Positions 23,806-38,544 of a stretch of DNA of 53,146 nt are shown in pieces. The translations under genes and the position numbers were made by a program. The stretch is taken from IMG/VR virus record IMGVR_UViG_3300025108_000070, positions 1 through 53,146 of that record, one strand, 5' to 3'. The notes beneath the pieces are model-generated. The model searched no databases. It saw only the letters and a list, made by a program, of their open reading frames with translations, and was not told the origin of the DNA. This DNA comes from a virus (lineage: Duplodnaviria; Caudoviricetes). The number at the start of each line of letters is the position of its first letter. Positions within the stretch are counted from its first letter, which is position 1.

Positions 23806-24000
23806 TTATAGACTTTTACAAACTTCTGTAACTATTTTTAATTGATTTTTTACTTCTGTAAGTTTTTCTTGTTGTTCTTTTGTTAAACCTGTTTCAAAAT
23901 TATCCATTTCTATTTGTTTTGCAAATGCTTTCATGTCTTTTAGTGTTTTCCAAGCATAATTTCTTGTTGACCATCTAGTCGGTTTTTTAGTTTTTATCAT
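23806..24000 (-). CDS. Hypothetical protein
   Basis: RBS GGAGG; ATGA overlap with upstream gene. Confidence 0.65.
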   Translation of the reverse strand: MIKTKKPTRWSTRNYAWKTLKDMKAFAKQIEMDNFETGLTKEQQEKLTEVKNQLKIVTEVCKSL

Positions 24001-24440
24001 TTTTCCTCCATTAATGCGTACATTCCAATACAGATTGCGTCTGCATTTTTTAATGTAACTTTGTGATTATTACTTGCCCAATCTTGAGCAACTTTCTTAA
24101 AATATCTTTTTCGTTCTGCATAGTCTTTTGGTATCTCTCCTCCAATGAACTGTTGCCATACTTTAGGCAATACATCTACTCTTTCTAGTTTTAATGACGC
24201 TATAATACCTAACCAAACGCCATAATTTTCACCAAAAGTAAAAGCACCTCTTTCGTAAGGTCTAGCCCACACTCTTTCTATGTATACTTTAGGTTTCTTA
24301 CGACCTATAGCATTTCTTATAACTTTAACCATATCTTCAGGTTCCCTGGAAGTAGGACAATTGGTAGTGAATTGGAGGTTCGTTGAGTCGAAGAAAGCAA
24401 CTGCCCCACTCCATCCAGGGTCTATAGTTATAATTTTCAT
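23997..24440 (-). CDS. RuvC-like Holliday junction resolvase
   Basis: ITIDPG..GAVA, VYIE, FTFG..YG, P..WQ, ADAICI. Confidence 0.8.
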   Translation of the reverse strand: MKIITIDPGWSGAVAFFDSTNLQFTTNCPTSREPEDMVKVIRNAIGRKKPKVYIERVWARPYERGAFTFGENYGVWLGIIASLKLERVDVLPKVWQQFIGGEIPKDYAERKRYFKKVAQDWASNNHKVTLKNADAICIGMYALMEEK

Positions 24441-25789
24441 TTATTCATCATTCTAATTGCTTCATTTCGGTCAAAGTATACGCTACATTTATCTCCATTA
24501 AAGCCCATATTATAAGAGCCTAATTGTCCATATCTAGCTTTTTGACATATTACTTCAATCTCATACCTATCATTGTCTCTATTGTCTACCGCATAAGGAT
24601 AGTATACAAAGAACGCCGCTTCAGCAGTTTGTTCAATTACACCACTTTCCGCAAAGTCTGATAACTTAGGTCTAGGGTCTAATCTTCTTTCAATTTCTCT
24701 ATTTAATTGTGATACTAATATAGCACTACACTTAATTTTCTTACAAATCCACTTATAGTCAAGCATTATATCTTCTATTTCAAACCTTCTGTCCTTATTA
24801 CCTCCATCTGTACGAATAAGTTGGATATAATCATCAAGGACTACATCTGGTTTTTCTTTGCTTATCTCTTTCATGGCATCTGCGAGTGTTTTACAATCAT
24901 CTAACATAATTAAGTTCTTGTATTTTTCACCAAGAGCCTCTTTCTTTAAATTGATTTGTGTAATCTCTTTGCTAATATCAGATGCTTTTCTAATTCGTTC
25001 ATAACTAAACTCTTGAAATTCCATTACTAAAATCTTTTTCATCATTTCAACATTAGTCATCTCACGATTAAATAACATAACTTTCTTACCTTGTTCAAGT
25101 AATCGTTTAACAATATTAATAATCATAGTAGTTTTACCATGTCCTGGTCTACCACCTACAACTGTAATCTCACCTCTAGTCATACCACCAGCTGCTTTAT
25201 CTAGCTGTTCAATACCAAAGGGTATTAAGTTAGTCCCTTCTTTTAATGCTTCTACTGTATTGGTTAATATGTCTTTAGTTTCAACTACTTTACTTGGAGC
25301 AAAATCTTTTAAATCCTGTATAATCTTTTCATGTTGATGTAAGACTTCTACAATATCATCTGTATTTTGTAAAGTTAAGTTATATAATATCTGGGAACTC
25401 TTTACCGCTTTACGTTGTATAAACTTATACCAAATGTTCTTAGCGTAAGTTTCAGCGTTCGCAGTAGTAGGAACTCCATTAGCCATTCCAGTTAAATAAT
25501 ATGTAGTTAAAGTATGGTCTGTGCAATTATCTCTTAAATCTCCGAATACTGTTACCGTATCTATTGGAACATTGTTTTTATAAAGCCTTGAAAACGATTT
25601 CCACAACTCTTGATGCTTAGTGGTATAAAATGCTTTCTCTTCCCTTATAATAGATTTTGCTTTTTCATAGATTTCATCACCTTCTAACAAAATACTTCCC
25701 AATAAAGCTATTTCTGCTTCTTCATTCTTGGGCATAGGTTCCATACTATTTGTCTGTTTAAGTTTTCTTTTATCTGTTATCTCTTTCAT
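24437..25789 (-). CDS. dnaB: Replicative DNA helicase, DnaB family
   Basis: N-terminal EAE.ALLGSIL; Walker A GRPGHGKT; DYIQL; SQLNR; RPKLSD..ESG.IEQ. Confidence 0.95.
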   Translation of the reverse strand: MKEITDKRKLKQTNSMEPMPKNEEAEIALLGSILLEGDEIYEKAKSIIREEKAFYTTKHQELWKSFSRLYKNNVPIDTVTVFGDLRDNCTDHTLTTYYLTGMANGVPTTANAETYAKNIWYKFIQRKAVKSSQILYNLTLQNTDDIVEVLHQHEKIIQDLKDFAPSKVVETKDILTNTVEALKEGTNLIPFGIEQLDKAAGGMTRGEITVVGGRPGHGKTTMIINIVKRLLEQGKKVMLFNREMTNVEMMKKILVMEFQEFSYERIRKASDISKEITQINLKKEALGEKYKNLIMLDDCKTLADAMKEISKEKPDVVLDDYIQLIRTDGGNKDRRFEIEDIMLDYKWICKKIKCSAILVSQLNREIERRLDPRPKLSDFAESGVIEQTAEAAFFVYYPYAVDNRDNDRYEIEVICQKARYGQLGSYNMGFNGDKCSVYFDRNEAIRMMNK

Positions 25790-26631
25790 AACACCTCCGA
25801 TTCTGTAAATAAACTAATTTGTCTTTCTTTTGGAATATAGTTTGTAATAACTAACTCATTCTTTTTTTCATCACTATGTAATTGACCAGCATATTTAATA
25901 GGTATTATATCTATAAAATAAAATCTATACATTTGCCATATTTCAGGTCTATCATCATAAGACACCATAAACTTTCCCCCGCCTGCATCAATTTCATCGC
26001 AAACTTCTTTTAAGCCTAAGTGGTCGTCTTCTGTAAATGAATGTATATAGTAATCATTTCTATCTGTAGCTGCAAAGTAAGGAGGGTCTAAATACCACAT
26101 ATCTCCTTTTTTTGGCTCATACTTTTCAATTAACTTTCTAAAATCCATATTTTCAATAAATACATTATTTAGTTTTTTTCTACTTGGTTCTAAATCAGCC
26201 AGAATATCATCATTCCATTTAGCAGCGCTACTAATTGGCAAGAAAGGGCTTTTGTTAAACGCCGTTTTCAATACAAAGAAGTACATTGCCGCTCTTTTAT
26301 AATCTGGTATGTCTACTTTTGAATTACTATGTATTAGTTTTCTATAGTCTTCGTGAAGAGTTCTAGACAATAGTATATGTTTACAATAATGTCTAAACTT
26401 ATCGAAATCCTCCGCTACTGAAATATACAAATTTATTATATCATTATGCAAGTCATTTAATATGTTTACTTGTGCTTTGTCTTTTCTAAAGAACATACTT
26501 CCTCCACCAAGAAATACTTCAATATATCGTTCATGACTATGAAGCTTAGGAACAAGTTGTCTTGATAAACTATATTTACCTCCATAATAAGGGAATATAG
26601 TTGGACAATCATTCTTCATTTTTTGGTCCAC
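25786..26631 (-). CDS. N6-adenine DNA methyltransferase (Dam/D12 class)
   Basis: YYGGK, YIEVFLGGGS, ND, DPPY, FMVSY, ELVITNY. Confidence 0.9.
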   Translation of the reverse strand: MDQKMKNDCPTIFPYYGGKYSLSRQLVPKLHSHERYIEVFLGGGSMFFRKDKAQVNILNDLHNDIINLYISVAEDFDKFRHYCKHILLSRTLHEDYRKLIHSNSKVDIPDYKRAAMYFFVLKTAFNKSPFLPISSAAKWNDDILADLEPSRKKLNNVFIENMDFRKLIEKYEPKKGDMWYLDPPYFAATDRNDYYIHSFTEDDHLGLKEVCDEIDAGGGKFMVSYDDRPEIWQMYRFYFIDIIPIKYAGQLHSDEKKNELVITNYIPKERQISLFTESEVL

Positions 26632-26911
26632 TTCGGTATGTAGAGAGATAATGTTCTACTTTTGGTCCGCTACCAAATGTTTTCCAAAATATTAAATCGT
26701 GTGCATTTTCATAATATTTAAACATCCATTTATCTACAACACCACCAGCATAGTCTGGATGATATTCATTATTTAAGCACATATTAGACATCATTTGATG
26801 ATATACAGCTGTATAAAACATTTTATCACTAAGATAATCACCAATTACCCACCAAGGGTCATCTCCATTTTCATATATATCGCATAGTTCTTCAAAATTA
26901 TATCTCTTCAT
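26609..26911 (-). CDS. Hypothetical protein
   Basis: Overlapping operon ORF. Confidence 0.65.
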   Translation of the reverse strand: MKRYNFEELCDIYENGDDPWWVIGDYLSDKMFYTAVYHQMMSNMCLNNEYHPDYAGGVVDKWMFKYYENAHDLIFWKTFGSGPKVEHYLSTYRSGPKNEE

Positions 26912-27254
26912 TTTTGTCCCCTTTTACTTGCTTATATAAATCAATAAATGAATCATTGCTTTCTACGCCAACTGGTAAAACATGAGAACAAAGCCCAGCT
27001 TTCTTAAATCCTTTTCTACGTGCATCAGTCATTCCAACGTGTAAAGCACCTGGACCATTTCCTTCATCATCCATTCCAATAAAGAAAGTATCACCTTCAT
27101 CTGTTTGAAAACAAAGCCCAGTACCTTCTTCTGGATAATCTCTATCCCATTCTTGCCACCAAACATCTGTTATTGTTCTATTTTTTAATAGCATTTGTGC
27201 TGATTGATACCACATTTTAGTTCTATCGTATTTCTTTTGTAAACTTTCTTTCAC
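26898..27254 (-). CDS. Hypothetical protein (DDEGNGPGAL motif)
   Basis: RBS GGAGG; operon ORF. Confidence 0.7.
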   Translation of the reverse strand: MKESLQKKYDRTKMWYQSAQMLLKNRTITDVWWQEWDRDYPEEGTGLCFQTDEGDTFFIGMDDEGNGPGALHVGMTDARRKGFKKAGLCSHVLPVGVESNDSFIDLYKQVKGDKNEEI

Positions 27255-27452
27255 TTAACCCTCCATATGTTTAAGTCTTAAATGTTCATCTCTTAAGTGA
27301 TTTAATTCAGATATATCATCTTCTATTTCACCTAATCTTGACATAAATTCATCTGTTATACCTTCTGTATCTAAATAATATCCTGTTTCTTCATCAAAAG
27401 AATAATATATATTTACACTTATAGTGTCATCTATTTGTTTTTCTTTTTCCAT
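27255..27452 (-). CDS. Hypothetical acidic protein
   Basis: RBS GAGG; operon ORF. Confidence 0.65.
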   Translation of the reverse strand: MEKEKQIDDTISVNIYYSFDEETGYYLDTEGITDEFMSRLGEIEDDISELNHLRDEHLRLKHMEG

Positions 27453-27579
27453 AATCCCTCTTTCTTCTTATTGAGCTTATATTGTTAAAATACATATATT
27501 CAAATCCAAGCTCATCTAGTTTATCTATTAAATTTGCTATTTTTTCTTGCAATTTAAATGCTTTTTCAGCGTCACTCAT
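27427..27579 (-). CDS. Small hypothetical protein (50 aa), not in ORF track
   Basis: RBS AAGGAG; MSDAEKAFKLQEKIANLIDKLDELGFEYMYFNNISSIRRKRDYGKRKTNR fills the gap. Confidence 0.65.
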   Translation of the reverse strand: MSDAEKAFKLQEKIANLIDKLDELGFEYMYFNNISSIRRKRDYGKRKTNR

Positions 27580-27844
27580 TTCTATGCTCCTTCAATTTAT
27601 CATCAACTTTTTTAACGTTTTGGTAAAGTTCTTGATATTTATTATCATGGAAGATAATATTATTTTTATTCAAGTGTCCCTCGTGTTTAATACTCCAAGT
27701 AGTATCTTGTTTAGTATCTTCTATTTCTTCTTCTGTAGGTATATGGGGCATAGGATACTTGTCTACTCCGTCTTCAAAGTCTTCTGCGTATCTAAGTTTA
27801 TAATCATCCATTTTTTCTATTTCTTTTTTCTTAAAATATCCCAT
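27572..27844 (-). CDS. Hypothetical protein
   Basis: TAATG coupling to upstream gene. Confidence 0.65.
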   Translation of the reverse strand: MGYFKKKEIEKMDDYKLRYAEDFEDGVDKYPMPHIPTEEEIEDTKQDTTWSIKHEGHLNKNNIIFHDNKYQELYQNVKKVDDKLKEHRNE

Positions 27845-28161
27845 TACATTCTACTCCCTGCTGTAATTTTATCGTATTTATCTTTATTGCCTCCGCATTC
27901 TTCAGCAATTTTCTCACACCAATCAAAGTATGTCATAGGTGCTACTTCATCATTACAAATATTACACCAACGTGGAGTATCATCAACACATTCTGTTACT
28001 TCAAGTGTGTTCATATTAACCCACGCTTTTTCATCTACTTCTTCTGTACCACAATAATCACATACCCACATATCATCCATATCTATTTTTGAAACTCTTT
28101 TTGCATATTCTGAATCAGTTTCTACGTGTGCTTTAATATCTTTACTCATTTGTTTCTCCAT
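27844..28161 (-). CDS. Zn-ribbon hypothetical protein
   Basis: CDYC...WCNIC. Confidence 0.7.
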   Translation of the reverse strand: MEKQMSKDIKAHVETDSEYAKRVSKIDMDDMWVCDYCGTEEVDEKAWVNMNTLEVTECVDDTPRWCNICNDEVAPMTYFDWCEKIAEECGGNKDKYDKITAGSRM

Positions 28162-28384
28162 CCATAACTCTAAATTGTTCTATCCAACTATCTTTATATT
28201 TTGCTATTACTGATACTCCACAAAATACCCACCAAGCTCTACCGTGTTTTTCTGCAAACTCTTCACTAATTCTATCGTGCTCTTTTGTATAAGCATGTAA
28301 AGTTTTATGTTTGCTAAGTCTTTCTTTAAAGTTGCTTTCAAACTTCAAAGGATTATTATTTTTATCATGTAAACTTAAACTCAT
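28142..28384 (-). CDS. Hypothetical protein
   Basis: RBS AAGGAG. Confidence 0.7.
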   Translation of the reverse strand: MSLSLHDKNNNPLKFESNFKERLSKHKTLHAYTKEHDRISEEFAEKHGRAWWVFCGVSVIAKYKDSWIEQFRVMDGETNE

Positions 28385-28400
28385 TCTTTCTCCTTTTTTT

Positions 28401-28789
28401 TCAGAACTGAGATAGCAGAGGTATAGAATGCACAGCTGATACCTTTAACTATACTATACTATCTCTATTCTGATTTAAGCAACTCACCCCTTGCAACCAT
28501 AGGTTATATAGCTTTAGTTAACCTAAATTTATCGCTATAAATGGCACTAAGGGTGTATTGTCACTAATTAATAACTTAGGAGTAGCTAGTTTTGGCTTCT
28601 ATAGACTTTAAGTAAGACTCACCTTCTGTTGCTACTCCTAATGATTAAGCAGCTTATAAACTCTAGAGTCTACTGGCTAATCCATCACCGCTCAAATTAC
28701 TAGCAAGAGAATAAACTTTGAAGAGAGGGTCACGCTACGTTCTCTATATGACTTCTGTACAGTAGCCAGTCTCTATCAAGTGGTTTATA
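28401..28789 (-). ncRNA. Array of four putative structured RNAs (28401-28473, 28480-28560, 28576-28641, 28655-28789)
   Basis: Each closed by an inverted repeat, e.g. perfect TTAGGAGTAGC/GCTACTCCTAA; G.U wobbles favour - strand. Confidence 0.6.
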
Positions 28790-28830
28790 TCTCAGGGACC
28801 TTTATTAAGAAGCTATCTCCTTTTAGGAAC

Positions 28831-29616
28831 CTACGCTCTTGCTAATCTTGTTATTGTTGGATAAATCTGATTCTCCATAATGTGAATAGACTCTCTATCT
28901 CTATGTGCAACGTGTGTCGCTACATAAGTACAAGCATTCAATAAATCCCAATATGTATTCATATTATTATTTAAACAATACCTTGTAAAGTCTTCCATAT
29001 ATTGTTGTGGAATCAGTTTAGCCATATCAACTAAATGTTTACCTCTTAACTTAGTTTTTGTTAGTCTTGGAAATTCTGTTTCAAACATTTGAACTAACAT
29101 AGAAACTGTATCAGTAATAGTACTATCTATTTGATTAATGCTAGTATTATTATTCTTATGTACAGCTTTCTTTTTTGTTAAGACATTACCAATTGTCAAT
29201 CCATTCAAGCATACAAGCCTAAATGCACCACCCATAACATTAACAGATGTGCTACCATCGTAACTATTTGCTACTATTAATTGTGGATTTATTAAATCAC
29301 CTTTCTCAACCTTAACTTCGGTTTTAGGAAAATTCCATTTCCAAATAGCTTTTGAACCATTGGAAAATGTTCTAGCTTCTGATAATTCAGCACCAGAACC
29401 TTTTAATACTTTTTGAACTTTATCAACAACTGATTTGTTGTCAACTACTTTGTATTCATCAGTCATACAAGACAATACATCTCCTGTATCTTCTCTTATG
29501 ATGAATTTATGACCTGTACCAGCTACTAAAGTTCTTTTTTTACCTTCAGCTTTCATAAATGTTGCTGGAACTTCTTTAACTGGAAATAGAGTCTCCTCCA
29601 TTGCTACTATAGACAT
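28831..29616 (-). CDS. DUF932-like protein
   Basis: REDTG.VL.....Y.VV.N, NSYDGS, FRLVCLNG, W.L.NA.T. Confidence 0.8.
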   Translation of the reverse strand: MSIVAMEETLFPVKEVPATFMKAEGKKRTLVAGTGHKFIIREDTGDVLSCMTDEYKVVDNKSVVDKVQKVLKGSGAELSEARTFSNGSKAIWKWNFPKTEVKVEKGDLINPQLIVANSYDGSTSVNVMGGAFRLVCLNGLTIGNVLTKKKAVHKNNNTSINQIDSTITDTVSMLVQMFETEFPRLTKTKLRGKHLVDMAKLIPQQYMEDFTRYCLNNNMNTYWDLLNACTYVATHVAHRDRESIHIMENQIYPTITRLARA

Positions 29617-30040
29617 CTTTATACTCTCCTCTTTCTACTTTTACTTTCTTTGGTGTTCTACCAAACTTTTTTATTTCGTTTTCTAACATCTTATCTTCAT
29701 TTTCATATCCAGATATAATCATCTGTTTTAAATATGCAAATCCTTTACCTTGATACACGTGTTCACTTATATTGTATTGATGAATTGTTCTCGTTACAGA
29801 TATAGCTGGTATCTGAGATATTGCTTGCAGGAAATAGAATGTTTTTTGATTATCTTTATCAGAACTAATGTTGCTGCGAATTAATTTTATAACTCGTTTC
29901 AACATTTTTTGACAGATTGAACCGTCTCCTCTTTTTTCCAAGAGAGAAATGATACGCTTTGTTGGATTGTACTTTCTTCCCGTTTCGTGTCCACAAGCCT
30001 CGCATTTCATTGTTCCTCCACTAATGTACCAGCTGACCAA
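29576..30040 (-). CDS. Hypothetical protein with N-terminal CxxC, possibly replication-related (likely start MKCEAC)
   Basis: CEAC; GKGFAYLKQMI is only loosely DnaD-like. Confidence 0.55.
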   Translation of the reverse strand: MVSWYISGGTMKCEACGHETGRKYNPTKRIISLLEKRGDGSICQKMLKRVIKLIRSNISSDKDNQKTFYFLQAISQIPAISVTRTIHQYNISEHVYQGKGFAYLKQMIISGYENEDKMLENEIKKFGRTPKKVKVERGEYKDVYSSNGGDSISS

Positions 30041-30231
30041 CTATGTTTTCCTTTATAATAACTTTCGTTAGTTTTAAAGTGATGACTATCTGGTATACTG
30101 TACACCATTACTTCTGCATTAATACCAACGCTCAATAAAACACCTTCTGTTCCATTTTGATTAAATCTTGCACCTGGTTTTAATGTTCTTATTTCTACTT
30201 TTTTACCCAATTGTAACCTCTCTACTTTCAA
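30007..30231 (-). CDS. Hypothetical protein
   Basis: Operon ORF. Confidence 0.6.
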   Translation of the reverse strand: MKVERLQLGKKVEIRTLKPGARFNQNGTEGVLLSVGINAEVMVYSIPDSHHFKTNESYYKGKHSWSAGTLVEEQ

Positions 30232-30406
30232 CTAGTTTTTTCATTCTTCTTTTAGCTGCTACATTTTCCATTATACCTTCAAAATCTCCTTGCAATCTAG
30301 CTAAAGGTTCTTTCATAGTACCGTTTAATGTAGTATTTCTTAGTGTTTCAATCATAAGATTCAGTTCACTATCTGTTATTTTTAATGTAATTACTGCTTC
30401 ATTCAT
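30203..30406 (-). CDS. Hypothetical protein
   Basis: Start moved to ATG 30406, overlapping the upstream stop. Confidence 0.6.
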   Translation of the reverse strand: MNEAVITLKITDSELNLMIETLRNTTLNGTMKEPLARLQGDFEGIMENVAAKRRMKKLVESREVTIG

Positions 30407-30554
30407 TTTCTTTTTCCCATTCATCTTTCACAATATAATCTATCATATCTTTTGCGCTGGAACCTATTTCTAAGTTAATTTTTATACGTTGTATAATTTT
30501 ATTCCAGACAGTATTAATACGCAACAATTCTTGTGCTTGTTTAAGTTTATCCAA
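30399..30554 (-). CDS. Small hypothetical protein (51 aa, TTG start), not in ORF track
   Basis: Strong RBS AAGGAGG; MDKLKQAQELLRINTVWNKIIQRIKINLEIGSSAKDMIDYIVKDEWEKENE. Confidence 0.7.
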   Translation of the reverse strand: MDKLKQAQELLRINTVWNKIIQRIKINLEIGSSAKDMIDYIVKDEWEKENE

Positions 30555-30566
30555 AATTCCTCCTTA

Positions 30567-30856
30567 TATATGCGGACTTAGTAGCCAACCTTTCTACATT
30601 GATTTTCCATGGAACTACGGATTTCACGTAGATTTAGTCCTGGACCACAATGCCGAAACAAGTCCGCATATAATTTACTAATTTAAGACTAGAAAACAAA
30701 GAGAAATAGTAAACCCACTGACTTATTTTACTTGTTTTGTACGGTGGAGTTGCGCTACCATAGAAGCTTTCTCTTTATTTTCCAATATTATAAGCTGAGT
30801 GCCTACAAATCTAGTAGATAACCGAATGTTTTAAACTAGACGAGGCACCGCCGCTT
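30567..30856 (-). ncRNA. Array of three putative structured RNAs (30567-30672, 30689-30785, 30792-30856)
   Basis: Perfect 13-bp TATATGCGGACTT/AAGTCCGCATATA; 15-18 bp stem with wobbles; GTGCCT/AGGCAC plus TCTAGT/ACTAGA. Confidence 0.65.
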
Positions 30857-30869
30857 GGTTAATTACCAT

Positions 30870-31433
30870 TTAGAATGGTAAATCATCAACACTTACTTCA
30901 TCTGAAGATAATTTATCTCCGTCATCCCACTTAAATACATTAGTTACTTTAAGTGATTTACGTTCTTTACCTTCTGAATTAGTAAATGAAGTTTCTTTTA
31001 ATTCAATTAAACAAGGAAATCCTACAACATCCTTTTCTTCTACTTCAGCTAGTGTTGTATCTCCAGCATCATTGCTTGGAAATGCTACGCCTAACCCTTC
31101 AAAGAACTCTTTGTATCTTCTGTTCTTCCATCCTTCACCCTCTGCTGGGCTAGGAGTCAACCAAACACCTTTATCTACACGATATGTGTTTCCTGATACA
31201 AAACCAGCACTAACAACATCACCTGTAGGTACATAATTACCATTAGAGTCTTTAGTTAGTTTTGGTATTTCAATTTCCTTTGCTTCTTCTGCAACTTTAA
31301 AAGTAAGATTAAATACAATGCTACCATTATATTCATTTGATTCAAACTTGCTTACGTGTGCAGGATAAGTTCCTTCTGCTACTGGTACAAATCCGTCTTC
31401 TTTTTCGTTGTATGTCGCTTTAGTTTCTTTCAT
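30870..31433 (-). CDS. ssDNA-binding protein-like
   Basis: F.PV.EGTY.A.V N-terminus; acidic tail ending DDLPF; near the annealing protein. Confidence 0.7.
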   Translation of the reverse strand: MKETKATYNEKEDGFVPVAEGTYPAHVSKFESNEYNGSIVFNLTFKVAEEAKEIEIPKLTKDSNGNYVPTGDVVSAGFVSGNTYRVDKGVWLTPSPAEGEGWKNRRYKEFFEGLGVAFPSNDAGDTTLAEVEEKDVVGFPCLIELKETSFTNSEGKERKSLKVTNVFKWDDGDKLSSDEVSVDDLPF

Positions 31434-31723
31434 TTAGTCTCCCCTTCAGTGTACTTTTCAATTACTTGGTTAACTTCCATTTTAAGCTTAGTCATTTCTT
31501 TAGAATACTTAGCTCCTTTTAATCCCGCAAAATATAACATAGGTGATACCCAAGTGTTATCTCCTGTTTTAACATATCTACGAGTTGTGCCTCTACCTGC
31601 ACTAATTAGACCATCATCTTGCATTTTCTCAAGGTCTTCTTGTGTAAAGACACCATCTTTTACAAGCTCTTCTGCTTGTTTAAGTGTAAGTTTACCCATT
31701 TTCATCCTCCATAGGTTCTTCAA
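31430..31723 (-). CDS. Hypothetical protein
   Basis: Operon ORF. Confidence 0.65.
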   Translation of the reverse strand: MKNLWRMKMGKLTLKQAEELVKDGVFTQEDLEKMQDDGLISAGRGTTRRYVKTGDNTWVSPMLYFAGLKGAKYSKEMTKLKMEVNQVIEKYTEGETK

Positions 31724-31946
31724 TACTATAGGACAAATAACTTTGATTAATATTTAAATTAATATGTTCATTGTTTGTTTTCATAACAAATGTTAGCATT
31801 GGCTTTCCATGATATAATTTAGTTCCTGTAAATATTGCATTACGAAACTCTTTACCGTCATTTACTCCAATAGTATAACTATTATTTGTCTGATATAGTT
31901 CGTCTCTATAGTTTTCTTTTGGTTTATTTATTTCACTTAGTTTCAT
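31692..31946 (-). CDS. Hypothetical protein
   Basis: Operon ORF. Confidence 0.65.
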   Translation of the reverse strand: MKLSEINKPKENYRDELYQTNNSYTIGVNDGKEFRNAIFTGTKLYHGKPMLTFVMKTNNEHINLNINQSYLSYSIEEPMEDENG

Positions 31947-32542
31947 TTAGACGCTCTCTTTTCATCAAGTTCGTCTATGGCTTTTTTTACTTTATCCGCT
32001 TTACGCTTCAATTTCGCAAAAGCCGCTTTATAGTTAGCATCATTAATTGTTTCGTCTCCAATTTGTGCAACTATTTTAGCCTCAAACTCTTTATCGCCTA
32101 TAATAGCAAGTAAATCTAACATTGATTTGTATTGCTCTTTATTCAACGCATCTGGAGGTTGAGGTAAATCTTCACCAGCATAGATATACAATCCTAATCC
32201 GTGTAATGCTATTGCTTTTGCTAAACAACGTTGTATTGAATTGTTTATTTGAAAAGCATTAGGTTCAGCTACAGTTTTATTCATGTGGTCTAATACTGGA
32301 TGTACTTGTGTTCTTCTTACTGAATCTATACTTACTGTTACTTGTACAAATGCACCAGCTTCAGTACGCATATAAGGTGTTTCTAAACTATTATCAAAGA
32401 AGGTATGTACCTCCCAAGTAGCTTTAGGAAATTCCTCAAGTAATACTTTTACAGCCCAAGCCCAAGAAAGATATGTAAATTTACCTTTCTTTTCTGTATG
32501 CTCACTTACATCTATTTTACTTAATACACTAAATGCACTCAT
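31943..32542 (-). CDS. Sak/Rad52-like single-strand annealing protein (DUF1071)
   Basis: YLSWAWA...PVLD...IN.SIQRCLAKAIALHGLGLYIYAGEDLP. Confidence 0.9.
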   Translation of the reverse strand: MSAFSVLSKIDVSEHTEKKGKFTYLSWAWAVKVLLEEFPKATWEVHTFFDNSLETPYMRTEAGAFVQVTVSIDSVRRTQVHPVLDHMNKTVAEPNAFQINNSIQRCLAKAIALHGLGLYIYAGEDLPQPPDALNKEQYKSMLDLLAIIGDKEFEAKIVAQIGDETINDANYKAAFAKLKRKADKVKKAIDELDEKRASK

Positions 32543-32762
32543 TTAAATCCCCCCATCTTTCATACAAATTGTCAAAATTTTTCATAATTTGTTTCCAAGT
32601 AACTTTATCTAAGTTTGCACTATTTCTAGCTTCAGGACTATACATATTATGTTGTGCATCTTGTCTAACTTCAAGAAATGCTATCCATTCGTCTTTGTAT
32701 ATTTTGTTTATTGGATTGTTATCTTTTCCGTCTCCAACTATTGCATAATTATCTTTTAACAT
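32529..32762 (-). CDS. Hypothetical protein
   Basis: Operon ORF. Confidence 0.65.
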   Translation of the reverse strand: MLKDNYAIVGDGKDNNPINKIYKDEWIAFLEVRQDAQHNMYSPEARNSANLDKVTWKQIMKNFDNLYERWGDLNECI

Positions 32763-33385
32763 ATTGAAAACCCTCCTGATTGTTCTGCAAACTCAGCAAA
32801 GTGTTCTATGTTATCTCTGTTAATAGGATAACTAGCTGCCCAATTTCTTTCTTCAAGCAATTCATCAAATTGTTTCTTCAAATCTTTAGGATAATTCATA
32901 GGAACAATGTCCTCGTCTCCCGTCATTGTTATAGCAATTTTATTTAAAGCTTCTTTTTGTTCATTAAGCTTTTCATTATCTTTTTTTGCTTGTTGCATAG
33001 CTTTTGCATGATTATCAAGATATTCTTGAGTTTCAGGAGTTTCTAAAGCTTCCTTTAATCTTTCAGCTATTGCTACTGCTTTATCTTCAGTAATGACATA
33101 GTTATCATTGTAACATCCAGCATTCATGTCATCTTCTGTTAATATATCTTCACAATGTTCACAAGTGAATGTCCATAAAGGTCTCCACCACCAAACATTA
33201 TTTCTAAAATAATTTCCTGGATTATTAGTTTCCCATTCATCATTTAATTTCCAATACTCATCATTAAGTCCTTGTTTTTCTCTAAGTTCATAAGACATAG
33301 CACATAACTCTTCATATCGTTCGCTCTTCTTATCTGAAAAGGCTTTTACTACTTGCGGATTTTCTCCATATAAATCGAATCCCAT
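32756..33385 (-). CDS. Phage hypothetical protein
   Basis: MGFDLYG...YFRNNVWWWRPLW...SGGFSIC; RBS GGAGG. Confidence 0.75.
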   Translation of the reverse strand: MGFDLYGENPQVVKAFSDKKSERYEELCAMSYELREKQGLNDEYWKLNDEWETNNPGNYFRNNVWWWRPLWTFTCEHCEDILTEDDMNAGCYNDNYVITEDKAVAIAERLKEALETPETQEYLDNHAKAMQQAKKDNEKLNEQKEALNKIAITMTGDEDIVPMNYPKDLKKQFDELLEERNWAASYPINRDNIEHFAEFAEQSGGFSIC

Positions 33386-33388
33386 TTG

Positions 33389-33595
33389 TTATTCCTCCAA
33401 CTTTCTTTGTTTGATTTGTTTTACTATCATTTCTGTTACTTGTTTACCTTTATCAGCAAACATTAATCTAATCCTTGTAGGCAAGACTATATCGAAATTA
33501 CAAACTGCACAACATCTACCATCATTAATAGGTTCTGCATTATGTCCATAAGGGTCGTCATGCTCCTGTCCACATATACTGCATTCTAGTTTCAT
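33389..33595 (-). CDS. Small Zn-finger protein
   Basis: CSIC...GHNAEP...GRCCAVCN; RBS GGAGG. Confidence 0.75.
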   Translation of the reverse strand: MKLECSICGQEHDDPYGHNAEPINDGRCCAVCNFDIVLPTRIRLMFADKGKQVTEMIVKQIKQRKLEE

Positions 33596-33618
33596 TTAGT
33601 TCCTCCGTATTATATAGT

Positions 33619-34347
33619 TTAGATACTATATAGACCAGGACAATATTTGCCCTGAAATTCACAATACTTACATTCCCAATTATATACAGGAACATTAGCG
33701 CTACCTGGCTTTAACTGCTCAGGTTCATTGTCTACCTTCTCTTGCACTTCATTAAGTTCAGTCCAGTAGTCAAATGCTTCTTCTATGTAAAAGTCAGATA
33801 TTTTTTCTTCTCTCATCATAGAACTATCTTTATTATACCACATTATAGATAAGTTTACATCAGTAATATCATATTCATTACCTAAACCCATTCCATAAGT
33901 AGCTAATTGCAATTCATAGTTAATTGAAGGATTCTTGTCTGGATTTCTACCAAACTTCATTCTCCATTTCCAAGCTCCTGCAGTCTTTATATCATACACG
34001 TGTATACTATCTGTTTGTTTGTCTACAACTCCTACATCCAAATGTCCTACTACGTTGAGTTCAGGCATCTCTATGCGGTGTTCTGTAACTACATCTAAAC
34101 CTTTAGCTTTATAATCTACAAATGCTTCTTCAAAGTCTGCGTGCACTAGAGTTCCAAGTCTTAATAATCTATTAGATTTTTCATCCATTGGTTCTAGTGG
34201 TAAGTCTTGAGTTCTATGTAATTGCTTTCTAAAACAACTACCAGCTGCACTAGCTGAGAACCAACCACGATGTTCTGAATATTTTTCTCTATTCTTATGT
34301 CGTAGTTTTTCTAAGTAATCGTTATATATTTTAGGTATATTTATCAT
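33619..34347 (-). CDS. PD-(D/E)XK exonuclease, Cas4/RecB-like
   Basis: SAS.AG.C.RK, GTLVH, E, GHLD, DIKT, QL..Y, CKYC......C. Confidence 0.85.
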   Translation of the reverse strand: MINIPKIYNDYLEKLRHKNREKYSEHRGWFSASAAGSCFRKQLHRTQDLPLEPMDEKSNRLLRLGTLVHADFEEAFVDYKAKGLDVVTEHRIEMPELNVVGHLDVGVVDKQTDSIHVYDIKTAGAWKWRMKFGRNPDKNPSINYELQLATYGMGLGNEYDITDVNLSIMWYNKDSSMMREEKISDFYIEEAFDYWTELNEVQEKVDNEPEQLKPGSANVPVYNWECKYCEFQGKYCPGLYSI

Positions 34348-34363
34348 TGATTCCTCCGACTAC

Positions 34364-34392
34364 AATATAAACATATTTCAGGTTAAATACAA
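34364..34392 (-). promoter_or_regulatory. Sigma70-like promoter for recombination/replication operon
   Basis: TTGTAT-17-TATATT just upstream of the exonuclease RBS. Confidence 0.65.
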
Positions 34393-34407
34393 CACCTATT
34401 CAGGCTA

Positions 34408-34492
34408 AGGCTATCGGGACATTTTTGATAATATCAATACAAGGAAATATTATTAAATCGGATGAATACACGACCATCCTAGTCCCGTGCCT
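34408..34492 (-). ncRNA. Putative three-way-junction RNA
   Basis: CGGGAC/GTCCCG closing stem; inner GGATG/CATCC and ATAATAT/ATATTAT. Confidence 0.55.
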
Positions 34493-34497
34493 AATTA

Positions 34498-34755
34498 TTA
34501 TACAATCCTTCTATAATTATAAAATAGTTTATCATTATTTTCAGTATCTAGCATGACATATTTACCAAAGTTTGCTTCTTTGTGTTGTATTCTTTTAGTA
34601 TCAATATCAAAACCTTCTTCTCTAAGTCTAAATATAATAGCACTTAGCCTTGTTGCACGATAATGTTCAAACGCATCTAAGCTTGTAATGTTTCCATAAG
34701 TTTTTAAATGCCTTAATATTTTTAATGTCTGAGTATTCTTTTTAGTATAAAACAT
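34498..34755 (-). CDS. Winged helix-turn-helix DNA-binding protein
   Basis: IL.HL...G.IT.L.A...Y...RLSA.IF.LR..G..I. Confidence 0.8.
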   Translation of the reverse strand: MFYTKKNTQTLKILRHLKTYGNITSLDAFEHYRATRLSAIIFRLREEGFDIDTKRIQHKEANFGKYVMLDTENNDKLFYNYRRIV

Positions 34756-34991
34756 TAGTTCCTCTCAATCTTAATAGTTATTCTTTTCTTAAAGAATGAA
34801 CGAGTGTCTTGCATTAATCTAACAAGCCAATGTGTTCTTCTGTAATTATTTAAGCCGCTCAATATAGCTACAGCCTTGGGATTATTATTAACCTTATAAC
34901 CGTAAGGATGTGTGTATTCCCATTCACCATTTTCTTCGTACTCTCTATTAACTCTATTTCTATATTCTACCATCTCAAATTTGTTCATCAT
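34755..34991 (-). CDS. Hypothetical protein
   Basis: RBS GAGG; TAATG coupling to downstream gene. Confidence 0.65.
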   Translation of the reverse strand: MMNKFEMVEYRNRVNREYEENGEWEYTHPYGYKVNNNPKAVAILSGLNNYRRTHWLVRLMQDTRSFFKKRITIKIERN

Positions 34992-35493
34992 TTTCCTCTT
35001 CTTCTTTCTTTTTAGTTTGTGATAAGTATTTCATTTTACTTCTACCTTTAAGAACAATTCTACTTCTCCAGTCAAACGCTTCTAAGTATTTAATATGTTC
35101 TTTATAATCTTTAACAACTTGACAATTAATATCAGAACTATTGTCAAAGTTACTTAATAAGTCTGGACTAAGCTTGCTATATTTACTTTTGATTATATAT
35201 CTTTTTCTAGCTTCTATAATCTTTTGTTTCTTATCATCAGCTTCATCATACTCTTGTTGCCACTTAACTAATAAAACACATTCTGCTACATATTTATATT
35301 TAATTCTAAATCTTTTTAAATCTCTATAATGTTTAGGCTCGTGTTTAAATCTTTTATCAATATTATAAATCTTTTTTATGTCTTTTCTACTACGTTGATA
35401 ATGATATTTACATAGTTTGAGCTTCTTATTATATCTTTTATTCTTACAATTCTGTTTACTACAGTTATATGTCTTCCAATCTCTTTTCTTCAT
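34975..35493 (-). CDS. Basic protein with N-terminal C-x4-C...C-x2-H Zn motif
   Basis: CSKQNC...LCKYHYQR; RBS GAGGT. Confidence 0.6.
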   Translation of the reverse strand: MKKRDWKTYNCSKQNCKNKRYNKKLKLCKYHYQRSRKDIKKIYNIDKRFKHEPKHYRDLKRFRIKYKYVAECVLLVKWQQEYDEADDKKQKIIEARKRYIIKSKYSKLSPDLLSNFDNSSDINCQVVKDYKEHIKYLEAFDWRSRIVLKGRSKMKYLSQTKKKEEEENDEQI

Positions 35494-35533
35494 ATCTACC
35501 TCTTTTCTACTTTGGTTTATTATACAAATATTA

Positions 35534-35830
35534 AAATACGTCTATAGTAGGATTACGCATTGGGAAGCTATCCCCCTACAATACCTATATGATACATCTG
35601 CGCGTTTCGCATTTTGTAGGTATCTTGATTGACATAGGTTTGCTCAGTCATTTGACCATTGCCTAACTACTCAGATATACATTAGATATCTAATTGCCTC
35701 AAGGTGGATTATGCATGATGTTACATTGTTATCCACTAATATAGCCGTATTCTAATTCTTTAAATTAAAGGGACAAGACGAGGTAAATGAGATATACTAC
35801 TAACTGATATTAAGTAGAGTCTCGCCCCTT
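35534..35830 (-). ncRNA. Two putative structured RNAs (35534-35752 multibranch; 35768-35830)
   Basis: AATACG/CGTATT closing stem with several inner helices; 12-bp AAGGGGCGAGAC/GUCUUGUCCCUU stem on - strand. Confidence 0.6.
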
Positions 35831-35836
35831 AAATAT

Positions 35837-36028
35837 TTAATCGTGTAATTCTAATAACATTCTTAAAGCTTTGATACGTATTTTTAAATCTTTATCGGTT
35901 ATATTATTAATTAATAACCTACGCATCTTTAAATCACTCATAGATATTCCATAGTATTGTTTATATAGTATTCTATAATCACTAAACAATCTATCTCTAC
36001 GTTCATATCCTAATTCATAATAAGTCAT
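35837..36028 (-). CDS. Hypothetical early protein
   Basis: RBS GAGGT; leader shared with the gene starting at 35493. Confidence 0.6.
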   Translation of the reverse strand: MTYYELGYERRDRLFSDYRILYKQYYGISMSDLKMRRLLINNITDKDLKIRIKALRMLLELHD

Positions 36029-36044
36029 ATTTACCTCTTTTCTA

Positions 36045-36071
36045 TTTATCTAGTTTATCTAATTTATCTAA
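36045..36071. repeat. 3 x 9-bp tandem repeat TTTATCTA(G/A)
   Basis: tttatctag tttatctaa tttatctaa. Confidence 0.8.
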
Positions 36072-36079
36072 TGGCTACA

Positions 36080-36383
36080 CTTATACATTAATGCCTGGAT
36101 TTACATGTTCGATTTGTGCAAATATTTCATTCGTCTTACATCTCCCGTAACTGGACTTAAGCACCCTGTGCTAAATCTAAGACTCTTTACGTTTCAACTA
36201 CTTCACATAGTCTACGAACGCCCATAAGAGGTATAAGCTTCACCTAATTTTAACCAGAATAGATATCCCTTACGGACACTAACGCCCACGTCTGGGAATT
36301 GTGGAAGGCCGCTAAGCCTAAAACCCTATCCTGATTAAACTTTAATTCTCTATTTTCTTTAGCCCTTCAGTTACGAAAGGCTA
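36080..36383 (-). ncRNA. Two putative structured RNAs (36080-36237, 36249-36339) plus hairpin 36360-36383
   Basis: CTTATAC/GTATAAG with nested helices; 14-bp closing stem with two G.U pairs and three inner hairpins. Confidence 0.55.
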
Positions 36384-36391
36384 TGACTCTC

Positions 36392-36553
36392 TTAATAATC
36401 TTTAAGAAAGTGTAGGACTACATCAATCATAGTCCAGGTATCAACATTATCATCTGGGCATAACCCGCTCAAACGATAATACCACATACCATTGCCCTCG
36501 TAGCTTATCCTAAGATAAGGACCACTTAAGGACTTCTCTAATCGTATATACAT
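36392..36553 (-). CDS. Small hypothetical protein (53 aa), not in ORF track
   Basis: RBS GGAGG; MYIRLEKSLSGPYLRISYEGNGMWYYRLSGLCPDDNVDTWTMIDVVLHFLKDY. Confidence 0.5.
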   Translation of the reverse strand: MYIRLEKSLSGPYLRISYEGNGMWYYRLSGLCPDDNVDTWTMIDVVLHFLKDY

Positions 36554-36599
36554 ACATACCTCCATGTAGTTTATAGGTTAAAGTAATTCTAATTCTAGT

Positions 36600-36683
36600 T
36601 TATCCCCATGTTATACACATATCTCTATATATATAGGGTGTTATATCTCTATGTATCTACATTATATCCACATATTATACACA
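36600..36683 (+). promoter_or_regulatory. DnaA-box-like cluster, candidate replication origin
   Basis: TTATCCCCA 36600, TTATACACA 36611, ATATCCACA 36664, TTATACACA 36675, with AT-rich TATA runs. Confidence 0.5.
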
Positions 36684-36723
36684 TATTGCTATGTATTCTA
36701 CTGTAATTAATGGATGGAAGTGT

Positions 36724-36765
36724 AAAAAAGAGTAAGAAAGGGAGTTTCTGTTTCAGGTACTCCCT
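36724..36765 (-). terminator. Rho-independent terminator
   Basis: AGGGAGT/ACTCCCT stem followed on - strand by TTCTTACTCTTTTTT, just after the 36778 stop. Confidence 0.6.
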
Positions 36766-36777
36766 AGACCTAGACGA

Positions 36778-37077
36778 TTAGTCTTTTGGTGTAAGTGCAT
36801 CAACTAAAGTCTGAACGCCTGATAATAGCGCGTCTAACTTAGCATCCGTATTAGAGCTAGCTCCTGGAGCTGTGAATCCAGACTGACCTGCAACCTGTGC
36901 TGCATACTGTGGGTCTTTCATCAATGACTCATGTACTTGTGCTTCAGACTCAAACTGAAGTAAGCTTCTACCATCTTGTATAATCTGATAGTTCTGTACT
37001 TTAGTTCTTACACCAGCCATCTTAAGCCTAGTGTTAGTCTGAATAGCTGACCTTACGTGTTCTATAGTATTACTCAT
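36778..37077 (-). CDS. First gene of the - arm, hypothetical
   Basis: Start moved to ATG 37077 after GGAG; has its own terminator. Confidence 0.75.
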   Translation of the reverse strand: MSNTIEHVRSAIQTNTRLKMAGVRTKVQNYQIIQDGRSLLQFESEAQVHESLMKDPQYAAQVAGQSGFTAPGASSNTDAKLDALLSGVQTLVDALTPKD

Positions 37078-37186
37078 TGATTTCTCCAATCATTTGATTT
37101 TCAACGTAAATTCATATATCAACAACCACAACTTAGGGGGTAGGGTGTGTGTATGTAGGGCTACTTCAAAATCCTACAATTTTTTG

Positions 37187-37215
37187 TTGCAAATAACATG
37201 GGGTATGCTTAGATT
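37187..37215 (+). promoter_or_regulatory. Sigma70-like rightward promoter
   Basis: TTGCAA-17-TAGATT upstream of RBS AAGGAG. Confidence 0.55.
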
Positions 37216-37237
37216 AGATGTAAACAAAGGAGTCTGT

Positions 37238-37405
37238 ATGACGATAACTAGTAAAGATTTAAAAGGTGGCGGTGGTTTAACTGGAGTAGCTAGAAAAGAA
37301 GCAGAAAAAGCCCAGATGAATCAGAAGCTACTTGAAAATGCTATAGCGCAGGTTCAAGAAAATTTAAAGAAAAAGAAAGAACCAAAGAAAAAGAAATCTA
37401 CATAA
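37238..37405 (+). CDS. Small basic hypothetical protein (55 aa)
   Basis: Start moved from 37094 to ATG 37238 after AAGGAG. Confidence 0.65.
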   Translation: MTITSKDLKGGGGLTGVARKEAEKAQMNQKLLENAIAQVQENLKKKKEPKKKKST

Positions 37406-37450
37406 TCTACTATATCTACTAGTATCTACTATAGCTACGTAGACTGCTCA

Positions 37451-37479
37451 AAGATAAAGTGTTTTGTAGTACAAGTCAA
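37451..37479 (-). promoter_or_regulatory. Sigma70-like leftward promoter
   Basis: TTGACT-17-TATCTT on - strand. Confidence 0.55.
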
Positions 37480-37490
37480 GGAAAAAATGT

Positions 37491-37772
37491 ATGGGTACAT
37501 CAATAAATTGGTTAGCAAGACTATCTCAAAAGGACCAGGAACGAATCTTGGGACATATTGAGCGCTTGGTTAAGCTAGAAAGGAAGTTGTCTAAACAAAT
37601 CTTAGAAGATGAAGAGATGACAATGGAATATGTAGAAAATGATGGCGATGCTGACGAAGGAATCGAAAGTGTACCCATAGAAATTAATGGAATTAAACAT
37701 TGGGTTCATAAGGATGTTATGTATTTGATTGAATCCTTGCATAAACAATTAGCGAAGCAACGTGGAAAGTAG
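37491..37772 (+). CDS. Hypothetical protein
   Basis: RBS AAGGA; overlaps next gene. Confidence 0.7.
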   Translation: MGTSINWLARLSQKDQERILGHIERLVKLERKLSKQILEDEEMTMEYVENDGDADEGIESVPIEINGIKHWVHKDVMYLIESLHKQLAKQRGK

Positions 37773-38544
37773 AAAAATTAAACATACAAGACATTACGTT
37801 TATGATACAAACAAAGAGTTTATGAAGGACCATCCCAAAGGGATACTTCACTCCGAATGGAGAGATGCAAAGGAAGGTGATTGGGTAAAGAGTGATGATG
37901 GTCGTATTGTTCAACTTCTTAAAGTCTCCGAAAATCTATCGCATCCAAAAGATTCTAAAAATTATAAACAATCTAAAGGCTATGTAAGAACTGTAGTTGG
38001 CACATTTATCAACTCTAAGAAAACTTACATGGACACAGACTTTGAAAAACACCCAAATCGCTACACATTTAGCACCAAAATCAAGAATACTTCTTCTAGG
38101 GTAAAGGAGAGGTCCAATTGTACAAACAGAGAAAAAATTTTCGCCACGAGCGTGGCAGTAGGAAAAGATGCTGTGAGTGCTTATATGAAAGCATTTACTG
38201 AAAAAAATCGTAACACGGCTAGGAAAAAAGCTGTAATTTTACTTAAACAGGAGCGAGTAATGACTGAAATAGAAAAAACTTCAAAAGAGATAGCTAAAGA
38301 GCTAGGTATTGACCATTCATACATATTAGGTTCTTTAAAACAACTAGCTGATACAAGCGAAGACGAAAATATAGCGTTGCAATCCTTAAAAGAACTAGGA
38401 AAAGCAATCGGTACATTGGGTAATCAAGTTAAAAAAATAGAAACTGGAGTCGTAGGTATGTTCCAAGGATTTAGTCCAGACGAAATCGAAGGAGCGTCAA
38501 GAGCTATACTACCAGAAACAACTTCCGAGGAGGAAAGCAAATGA
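37762..38544 (+). CDS. Putative terminase small subunit with N-terminal extension
   Basis: T.REK.FA......DAVSAY.KAF...A..LL HTH-like region; upstream of terL. Confidence 0.55.
   Translation: MESRKIKHTRHYVYDTNKEFMKDHPKGILHSEWRDAKEGDWVKSDDGRIVQLLKVSENLSHPKDSKNYKQSKGYVRTVVGTFINSKKTYMDTDFEKHPNRYTFSTKIKNTSSRVKERSNCTNREKIFATSVAVGKDAVSAYMKAFTEKNRNTARKKAVILLKQERVMTEIEKTSKEIAKELGIDHSYILGSLKQLADTSEDENIALQSLKELGKAIGTLGNQVKKIETGVVGMFQGFSPDEIEGASRAILPETTSEEESK

Follow-up and report, generated by a model that had tools for sequence, protein, structure and literature searches.

The window analysed here is the whole of the IMG/VR virus record IMGVR_UViG_3300025108_000070 (53,146 bases, 99% complete), and the subject is a set of 14 intergenic units of 46-227 nt which very probably encode structured RNAs. 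They lie in the - strand arm of the genome (approximately 24437-36565), the sole arm besides that for packaging and virion genes, which carries the replication and recombination functions. Its products include a DnaB-like helicase, a DNA methyltransferase, a DUF932 protein, an SSB-like protein, a Sak-like annealing protein, a Cas4-like exonuclease and a winged-helix protein, together with numerous small open reading frames (ORFs) without assigned function. The ORFs of the arm abut or overlap except at five gaps, 28385-28830 (446 nt), 30555-30869 (315 nt), 34348-34497 (150 nt), 35494-35836 (343 nt) and 36029-36391 (363 nt), which total 1,617 nt or approximately 13% of the arm; a sixth gap, 36566-36777, is outside this set. 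Each of the five junctions carries two to five different units in tandem, while about 20 other arm junctions have none. A previous reading of the letters without database searches (hereafter the sequence-only reading) had described five structured intergenic blocks in an otherwise gap-free arm. This description is borne out, with the 14 units, all assigned to the - strand, delimited in the five gaps by minimum-energy folds and by similarity break-points against relatives.

The gaps themselves are non-coding, as the sequence-only reading had supposed. On neither strand is an ORF of at least 12 aa, within or near them, preceded by a Shine-Dalgarno (SD)-like motif, unlike the arm genes, most of which have strong ribosome-binding motifs; the longest such ORF on the - strand has 27 aa. 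In each of the four large gaps, two or more kinds of stop codon occur in all six frames, so that no single stop-codon reassignment would open them, and indels of 2, 3 and 5 nt among relatives of the largest unit, M4b, rule out a conserved frame. Small protein genes were rejected on these grounds.

Evidence that the units are selected for their folds comes from related phages. Relatives were collected from IMG/VR and from metagenomes by searches with the Sak-like protein and four module cores, and represent a marine phage contig family with a common gene order and roughly 65-90% DNA identity. Module matches covering less than 50% of a unit were excluded from the homolog listing. Alignments were obtained for 11 of the 14 units (M1d, M1e and M5a have no usable relatives), and compensatory changes are present in eight of these: M1a, M1b, M1c, M2a, M2b, M2c, M4b and M5b. 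The check for covariation across related phages that had been proposed at the outset is thus positive for most of the alignable units. M4b (35530..35756) is the most complex, a predicted 227-nt multibranch RNA of 11 helices with near-invariant junctions and loops. Over 12 distinct sequences its 67 pairs are retained in 99.8% of 804 cells, and seven pairs are changed on both sides; slid controls are 34-40% paired with 0-2 such changes. One strand of M4b is able to pair with either of two partners.

M2c (30567..30672; 106 nt) is a leader element whose closing stem of 13-14 bp encloses a hairpin and an unpaired stretch, both conserved. In the window the stem is a perfect 13 bp, in line with the long closing stems reported by the sequence-only reading. 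Among 13 sequences its 18 pairs are 98.7% paired and nine are changed on both sides (slid controls 17-53%, 0-2). One relative (L317) was excluded from this set as a chance pattern match. M1a (28695..28802) folds as an irregular hairpin of approximately 100 nt with a candidate H-type pseudoknot; 14 sequences, from which the truncated L192 and L184 were excluded, support 27 pairs including a 5-bp pseudoknot helix, at 99.7% paired and three changes on both sides (slid controls 31-54%, none). M5b (36080..36237), a branched unit of approximately 160 nt, has 40 pairs that are 95% paired in five sequences, with seven changed on both sides (slid controls 26-42%, 0-1). M1b (28645..28699) is a three-way junction of approximately 50 nt with a near-invariant core, a 21-mer of which is present in 15 IMG/VR contigs. 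Its 19 pairs are kept in all 10 distinct sequences (100% paired in sense, 80% in antisense) and two are changed on both sides (slid controls 33-52%, 0-1).

The remaining covarying units have fewer sequences. M1c (28578..28641), a hairpin with a 9-11 bp closing stem and a large, weakly paired loop, has 17 pairs which are 88% paired in five sequences, two of them changed on both sides (slid controls 38-47%, 0-1). M2a (30792..30856; 65 nt), an interrupted hairpin that immediately follows the SSB-like gene, has 18 pairs at 90% in six sequences, again with two such changes (slid controls 25-42%, 0-1). M2b (30684..30790; 107 nt) is closed by a long stem and has a conserved core within; six sequences give 26 pairs at 91% and five changes on both sides, against slid controls that are themselves high (47-56%, 1-3).

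Three units, M3a, M3b and M4a, are conserved but have no pair changed on both sides. M3a (34408..34492) is a predicted 85-nt branched unit known from only three sequences. M3b (34348..34407) comprises 60 nt directly ahead of the Cas4-like exonuclease gene (33619-34347), which it precedes in all cases. Its 12 distinct sequences are conserved with little structure, and it is better termed a conserved leader because its seven predicted pairs never covary. M4a (35764..35834) is a 71-nt hairpin with a wobble-rich 12-bp closing stem, located after gene 35837-36028, with five distinct sequences at 95% identity that are 100% paired in sense and 84% in antisense. Of the three units without alignments, M1d (28487..28576) is a predicted branched orphan with no homolog among the fetched related loci, and M5a (36249..36339) is an orphan of 91 nt, predicted to form three hairpins and a closing stem of 13 bp, for which a single partial homolog was obtained and ARAGORN calls no tRNA. 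M1e (28401..28473) is a predicted long irregular hairpin of 73 nt which ends 16 nt ahead of the start codon of gene 28142-28384. Its homologs are partial: one (L001) has 72% identity, and two others (L003 and L082) keep only both ends around a different 366-nt interior.

A short motif recurs in some of these units. The first three arm genes share the ribosome-binding motif GAGGUA (sites 35497, 36032 and 36557). The complement of this motif, UACCUC, is found on the RNA strand of M1e (28418), M4a (35780) and M5b (36228), three of its four occurrences in 24000-37000 being within gaps. In M4a it occupies a conserved unpaired stretch and is kept by an otherwise different hairpin in a relative (L004). 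An anti-SD role was considered post hoc and set aside, as the motif is unconserved among M5b relatives.

The sequence-only reading proposed selection on the sense transcript from the distribution of wobble pairs. Over 12 alignments G.U cells number 234 and A.C cells 12 (12 and 4 in M2a, 16 and 0 in M4a), a count that leans towards the folded strand because the structures were predicted on one strand. When both strands were folded independently, the consensus energy was lower on the - (gene) strand in 10 of 11 alignments, including M4b (-53.6 sense, -37.1 antisense), M2c (-19.4 and -8.1) and M1b (-18.1 and -9.2), which upholds that proposal. The exception is M1a, where the antisense energy is the lower and folding leaves the strand ambiguous. 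In M4b 802 of the 804 cells are paired in sense and 738 in antisense, with 64 G.U against 0 A.C cells. In 23 related loci the 99 module matches all run in the direction of the arm genes, with none in the opposite orientation.

The units do not appear to be independent transcription units. A scan for sigma-70-like promoters gave no excess (59 sites found, 66.7 expected), and hairpins followed by a T run number three in 24000-38000 (4.8 expected), all of them in coding sequence and none in the five gaps. With no promoter excess or terminator of their own, the units are most simply part of a long operon transcript. Intrinsic terminators were accordingly rejected as an identity for them. The units share no sequence with one another, and the sole internal repeat, a 32-nt direct repeat at 36601-36696, is outside the five gaps. 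A 7-mer common to M1a and M2c was rejected as a module motif, having four occurrences in the window where 3.8 are expected. Tandem Repeats Finder reports in the gaps only two to three copies of short AT-rich units (5 nt at 28448-28462 and 9 nt at 36028-36072). No mutually similar repeats of 25-40 nt exist in the gaps, and a CRISPR array or solitary-repeat RNA anti-CRISPR was rejected. ARAGORN found no tRNA or tmRNA in the window or in 20 related loci. The assertions that the units are mutually unrelated, lack U-tails and are neither tRNAs nor CRISPR repeats therefore survive repeat, terminator, ARAGORN and Tandem Repeats Finder searches.

Known RNA families provide no identity. At gathering score Rfam 15 has no match in the window or in 12 related loci (134,524 bases), so the Rfam check suggested at the outset leaves the units without a family. 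At E<=5 five sub-threshold matches are obtained on 28000-37500, with one in a gap, none on M4b, and no riboswitch or leader among them. A let-7 match on M1e (23.7 bits, gathering score 53.5) was taken as a generic hairpin match and discarded. A distant BLASTN search of 28385-36380 against cultured phages returned the Sak-like gene and one 43-nt Pelagibacter phage stretch but no module, and the Sak-like gene is the exception to a general lack of DNA-level likeness between cultured phages and the window. A 16-mer of M4b has 120 matches in bacterial genomes, approximately the chance number, and a profile search there found nothing beyond the seed, a result uninformative on the host. Full-text literature searches gave, among the matches listed, no paper on these RNAs or this phage group.

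The positions of the units relative to genes fall into two patterns. M2c and M3b each keep to a single gene that follows them, and M1a to a single gene that it follows. The M2c closing stem stops one base before the AAGGAGG of the TTG-start gene 30399-30554, and in every aligned sequence, whether the relative was found by BLAST or by pattern, M2c is upstream of this one gene and the sequence reaches its ribosome-binding site. M1a, where present, directly follows the stop codon of the DUF932 gene (28831-29616); all 15 distinct sequences share the upstream gene end and are variable downstream. M1a is missing from some relatives that have the DUF932 gene (L003 and L166). For M4b, M5b, M1b and M1c, presence or absence is independent of the neighbouring genes. 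M4b is present at 84-98% identity or otherwise absent, and a profile search of 199 loci found it in 15 strong loci only, with no diverged copies. It lies ahead of three different genes in different relatives.

The islands formed by these units occupy fixed junctions, downstream of the DUF932 and SSB-like genes, ahead of the exonuclease gene and within the arm leader, and their content varies among close relatives. Arrangements after the DUF932 gene comprise M1a alone, M1a-M1b-M1e, M1a, M1b and M1c with unknown inserts, M1a-M1c, and M1b-M1c without M1a. In the arm leader the order M5b then M4b, at a spacing of 90-105 nt, is kept in six relatives (L004, L166, L168, L174, L167 and L173); in the window a 63-aa gene and M4a intervene. 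Relatives without M4b and M5b have approximately 1 kb of ORF-free sequence in this place (L001 1704-2731, L005 1980-2957, L006 2263-3184 and L008 1992-3087). These four leader islands are mostly unrelated to the window units and to each other, and with 4-9 homologous loci each they are too thin for covariation. By these comparisons the arm leader is a hypervariable non-coding island across the family, and modules are exchanged between close relatives as cassettes. A single-linkage count of module families was discarded since it fused neighbouring units.

Taken together these data make it highly probable (about 0.9) that the units are real functional RNA structures of the sense strand, a judgement made from sequence comparison. 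Several observations weigh against it. The alignments are shallow (5-16 sequences, 67-95% identity) and several of the changes on both sides may for that reason be single inherited events, while four units (M1d, M1e, M3a and M5a) have too few relatives for covariation. Folding energy does not distinguish the gaps: in 120-nt windows taken every 60 nt on the - strand, without registration to stems, z scores are the same in gaps (n=22, mean -0.65) and in coding sequence (n=163, mean -0.60; Mann-Whitney p=0.60), so that the expectation of the sequence-only reading that the blocks would stand out against shuffled sequence failed in this form. Minimum free energy (MFE) was dropped as main evidence because the sliding z does not part gaps from coding sequence. 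Borders registered to stems, which bias z downward, place eight of the 14 units below the coding 5th percentile of -2.83, namely M2c (-4.9), M4b (-4.4; -1.3 on the + strand), M2b (-3.9), M1e, M2a and M4a (each -3.6; M4a -0.8 on the + strand), M5a (-3.4) and M3a (-2.9; -4.2 on the + strand). Even so registered, the remaining six are unremarkable (M1a -0.4, M1d -1.7, M3b +0.5, M5b +0.2, and M1b and M1c). For whole gaps z ranges from -0.5 to -4.9 on the - strand and from -0.1 to -4.3 on the + strand. The case for structure beyond chance is, on present alignments, one of covariation and not of folding energy. In favour, the modules that are detected show higher conservation than the genes beside them in 15 of 17 relatives (Wilcoxon p=4e-5), a test that is biased upward since only modules detectable by BLAST at 70% coverage enter it and diverged copies of M2b and M2c are lost. 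Also in favour are public RNA libraries: 16 runs contain 5-13% of sampled words from the region, and contigs of relatives from RNA libraries of four studies cover genes and modules, single contigs spanning the DUF932 gene into M1a; these data are assembled contigs, blind to ends, strand and level, stretches without cover are uninformative, and DNA carry-over is possible. In one run the M1a and M4b contigs have the highest depths (67.6 and 55.6, compared to 3-16 for genes), which is a hint only, as such depths cannot rank genes.

If the units are functional RNAs, what would they do? The sequence-only reading had suggested a small-RNA repertoire cut from early transcripts, with host silencing, decoys for anti-phage proteins or signals for the virion RNA polymerase as possible roles; of this, the part that finds support is the presence of many unrelated structured units read from the gene strand. 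The islands would carry independent selected folds within a long early and replication transcript of the - strand, and a division into two classes is proposed, tentatively and with a little less than even confidence. Units of one class would act in cis: M1a, M2c, M3b, M1e and the simple long hairpins M2a and M4a may provide protected 3' or 5' ends to the flanking messages and control translation of the next gene, in the manner of the intercistronic processing hairpins of T7. M2c and M3b, which abut the ribosome-binding site of the next gene, and M1a, which follows a stop codon, look like cis elements and not free small RNAs. Those of the other class, M4b, M5b, M1b and M2b, which are complex, nearly invariant in sequence and independent of particular genes, would be stable non-coding RNAs released from the same transcript, working via a specific partner, whether protein or RNA, of host or phage. 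This division is favored by the tandem stacking of units at few junctions with about 20 left bare, by the conservation of the M4b fold and junctions beyond the need of a cleavage hairpin, and by the gain and loss of some units as cassettes.

The simplest alternative is that all the units are cis punctuation of a polycistronic early mRNA, acting as RNase III- or RNase E-type sites, stabilisers or insulators, with none working in trans. Much agrees with this: the units have no promoters or terminators of their own, are co-oriented with the genes and keep their order at fixed junctions; M2c, M3b and M1e adjoin the ribosome-binding site of the gene that follows; and M1e, M2a and M4a are long irregular hairpins resembling T7 RNase III sites. 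As a complete account it is nonetheless unlikely, although a serious contender, since some 20 arm junctions lack any element and five have two to five different ones, since the 11-helix fold of M4b and the near-invariant core of M1b (10 sequences) far exceed what a cleavage hairpin needs, and since M4b, M5b, M1b and M1c come and go while neighbouring genes are unchanged. Another proposal is that the gene-independent units, and the unrelated ones found in their stead in the leader islands of relatives, are accessory RNA genes, expressed first upon infection and traded among phages like protein anti-defence cassettes. In that role they would counter a host factor or a defence system in trans, whether as decoys, as sponges or as a ribozyme. 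This is rather doubtful, and somewhat more so than punctuation alone. A role as cis-regulatory sensors, that is riboswitch-like or protein-binding leaders or attenuators tuning the downstream genes, is most plausible for M2c and M3b and improbable overall. M2c has a fixed position one base before the ribosome-binding site of one gene, a covarying fold and conserved unpaired nucleotides, M3b is a sequence-conserved exonuclease leader, and the alternative pairings of M4b might signify alternative conformations. On the other hand, no Rfam riboswitch or leader matches even at E<=5, no terminator-like platform is seen, the M2c fold leaves the ribosome-binding site unsequestered, and the genes that follow M4b and M5b differ from relative to relative.

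Two further explanations, each very improbable, dispense with RNA function. The islands are among replication and recombination genes, and a strand bias with G.T wobbles would equally suit a single DNA strand, as expected of priming or origin signals or of recombination sites for the SSB, Sak-like and exonuclease proteins. However, a set of 14 unrelated units spread over five sites, one having 11 helices and conserved junctions, does not resemble known origins or priming signals, and several of the units abut translation signals; the relatives in RNA-library contigs argue weakly in the same direction. Selfish or neutral DNA, such as elements resembling miniature inverted-repeat transposable elements (MITEs) or decaying gene remnants that fold by accident, could account for patchy presence at high identity among relatives and for the junction in one relative (L003) at a short motif shared by M1a and M1e. 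The units are in single copy per genome, in the same island, order and orientation, for which a MITE-like element was rejected, and they show no residual reading frame. The direct-repeat list has no repeats flanking them (target-site duplications were not searched for), and compensatory changes with conservation above that of neighbouring genes show selection on the fold.

Structured RNAs between phage early genes are already known. The early transcript of T7 contains the RNase III signals R0.3 to R1.3, one simple hairpin per junction. The window units are similar in being structured, without a U tail, between cistrons of a long early transcript and oriented with the genes, and M1e, M2a and M4a are comparable in size and shape. 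They differ in that each occupied junction has two to five unrelated units, of up to 227 nt, with 11 helices and invariant loops in M4b, and most junctions are bare; M4b, M5b, M2b, M2c and M1b are branched, and all are known from sequence alone. The promoter-early stem-loop (PeSL) cassettes of T4-type phages, reportedly the subject of work by Arbiol et al. in 2010, are said to be multi-copy, mutually similar and to carry an early promoter. As early-region intergenic elements at places where content is shuffled between related phages they are alike, whereas the window units are single-copy and mutually unrelated, lack a promoter signal or excess, and are themselves the shuffled content; a PeSL identity was rejected. 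T4 also encodes, within its tRNA cluster, the small stable RNAs species 1 and 2, which are co-transcribed and processed with tRNAs. These are likewise non-tRNA stable RNAs from a polycistronic phage transcript, as is proposed for some window units, but neither the window nor the 20 relatives have tRNAs.

For M4b the closest parallels are found elsewhere. GOLLD, ROOL and HEARO are large ornate RNAs associated with phages and IMES are marine RNAs, all represented in Rfam. M4b shares with them a complex multi-helix architecture, conserved junctions, carriage by a phage and a marine source; it is much smaller than GOLLD and ROOL, matches no Rfam family and is confined to one phage family among the fetched loci. 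Intergenic regions in IMG/VR have also yielded predicted structured RNA candidates (Fremin, Bhatt and Kyrpides, 2023; PMC10690425). In the available portion of that article, these candidates are of 29-151 nt and include cis-regulatory ones upstream of genes. They resemble the present units in their IMG/VR source, in belonging to conserved intergenic regions of uncultured phages and in covariation. In the same portion the candidates are taken singly and islands of unrelated units are not described, and M4b as a whole, at 227 nt against at most 151 nt, is not among them. For M2c, the fixed pre-gene position and covarying fold would suit a riboswitch-type leader, while neither a platform hiding the ribosome-binding site nor a terminator is seen.

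What distinguishes the present case is the grouping of unrelated, exchangeable folds into islands, one of them large and complex. Approximately 13% of the sole non-structural arm of a 53-kb marine phage is devoted to at least eight different selected folds, and the size and intricacy of M4b make it a candidate for some specific biochemical function. Should some units act in trans, phage accessory regions would hold RNA genes beside protein genes for host takeover, genes which annotation pipelines based on ORFs only would overlook. If the accessory-RNA proposal is true, M4b would represent a new class of large functional phage RNA. The alignments suffice for covariance models of M4b, M2c, M1a and M1b, and more shallowly of M5b, for use on marine metatranscriptomes.

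Other features of the genome surround the arm. GC skew switches at approximately 24 kb and 37 kb. The + strand carries the packaging and virion genes, with a small and a large terminase, a P22-like portal, an SU10-type capsid protein and a tail-fibre chaperone domain, and also encodes a 2,895-aa protein (12395-21082) for which neither Pfam nor a TBLASTN search of 50,697 phage records gave a match. A 23-nt motif on the - strand (36598-36620), located at the head of the arm, is near-invariant in 12 related sequences, conserved at the level of sequence and not of pairing. It is in single copy in the window at up to three mismatches, with a four-mismatch copy 64 nt upstream (approximately 36662-36684), and is a candidate early promoter for a host or phage polymerase, or a candidate protein-binding site. 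The annotated ATG of the adjacent ORF 36392-36565 (57 aa) has no ribosome-binding motif, and the real start is probably further in, because GGAGGT and then ATG occur a few codons inside. Directly after gene 36778-37089, a - strand hairpin at 36725-36765 (7 bp, G+C-rich, 12-nt loop, T-rich tail) looks like a terminator dividing that gene from the arm; the terminator scan overlooked it because its loop exceeds 8 nt. Gene 35837-36028 has, immediately before its ribosome-binding site, three to five repeats of a 9-nt unit (36028-36072). Another 9-nt unit, in 4.7 copies at 37396-37438 in the divergent region between the two arms, looks like a set of iterons or operators.

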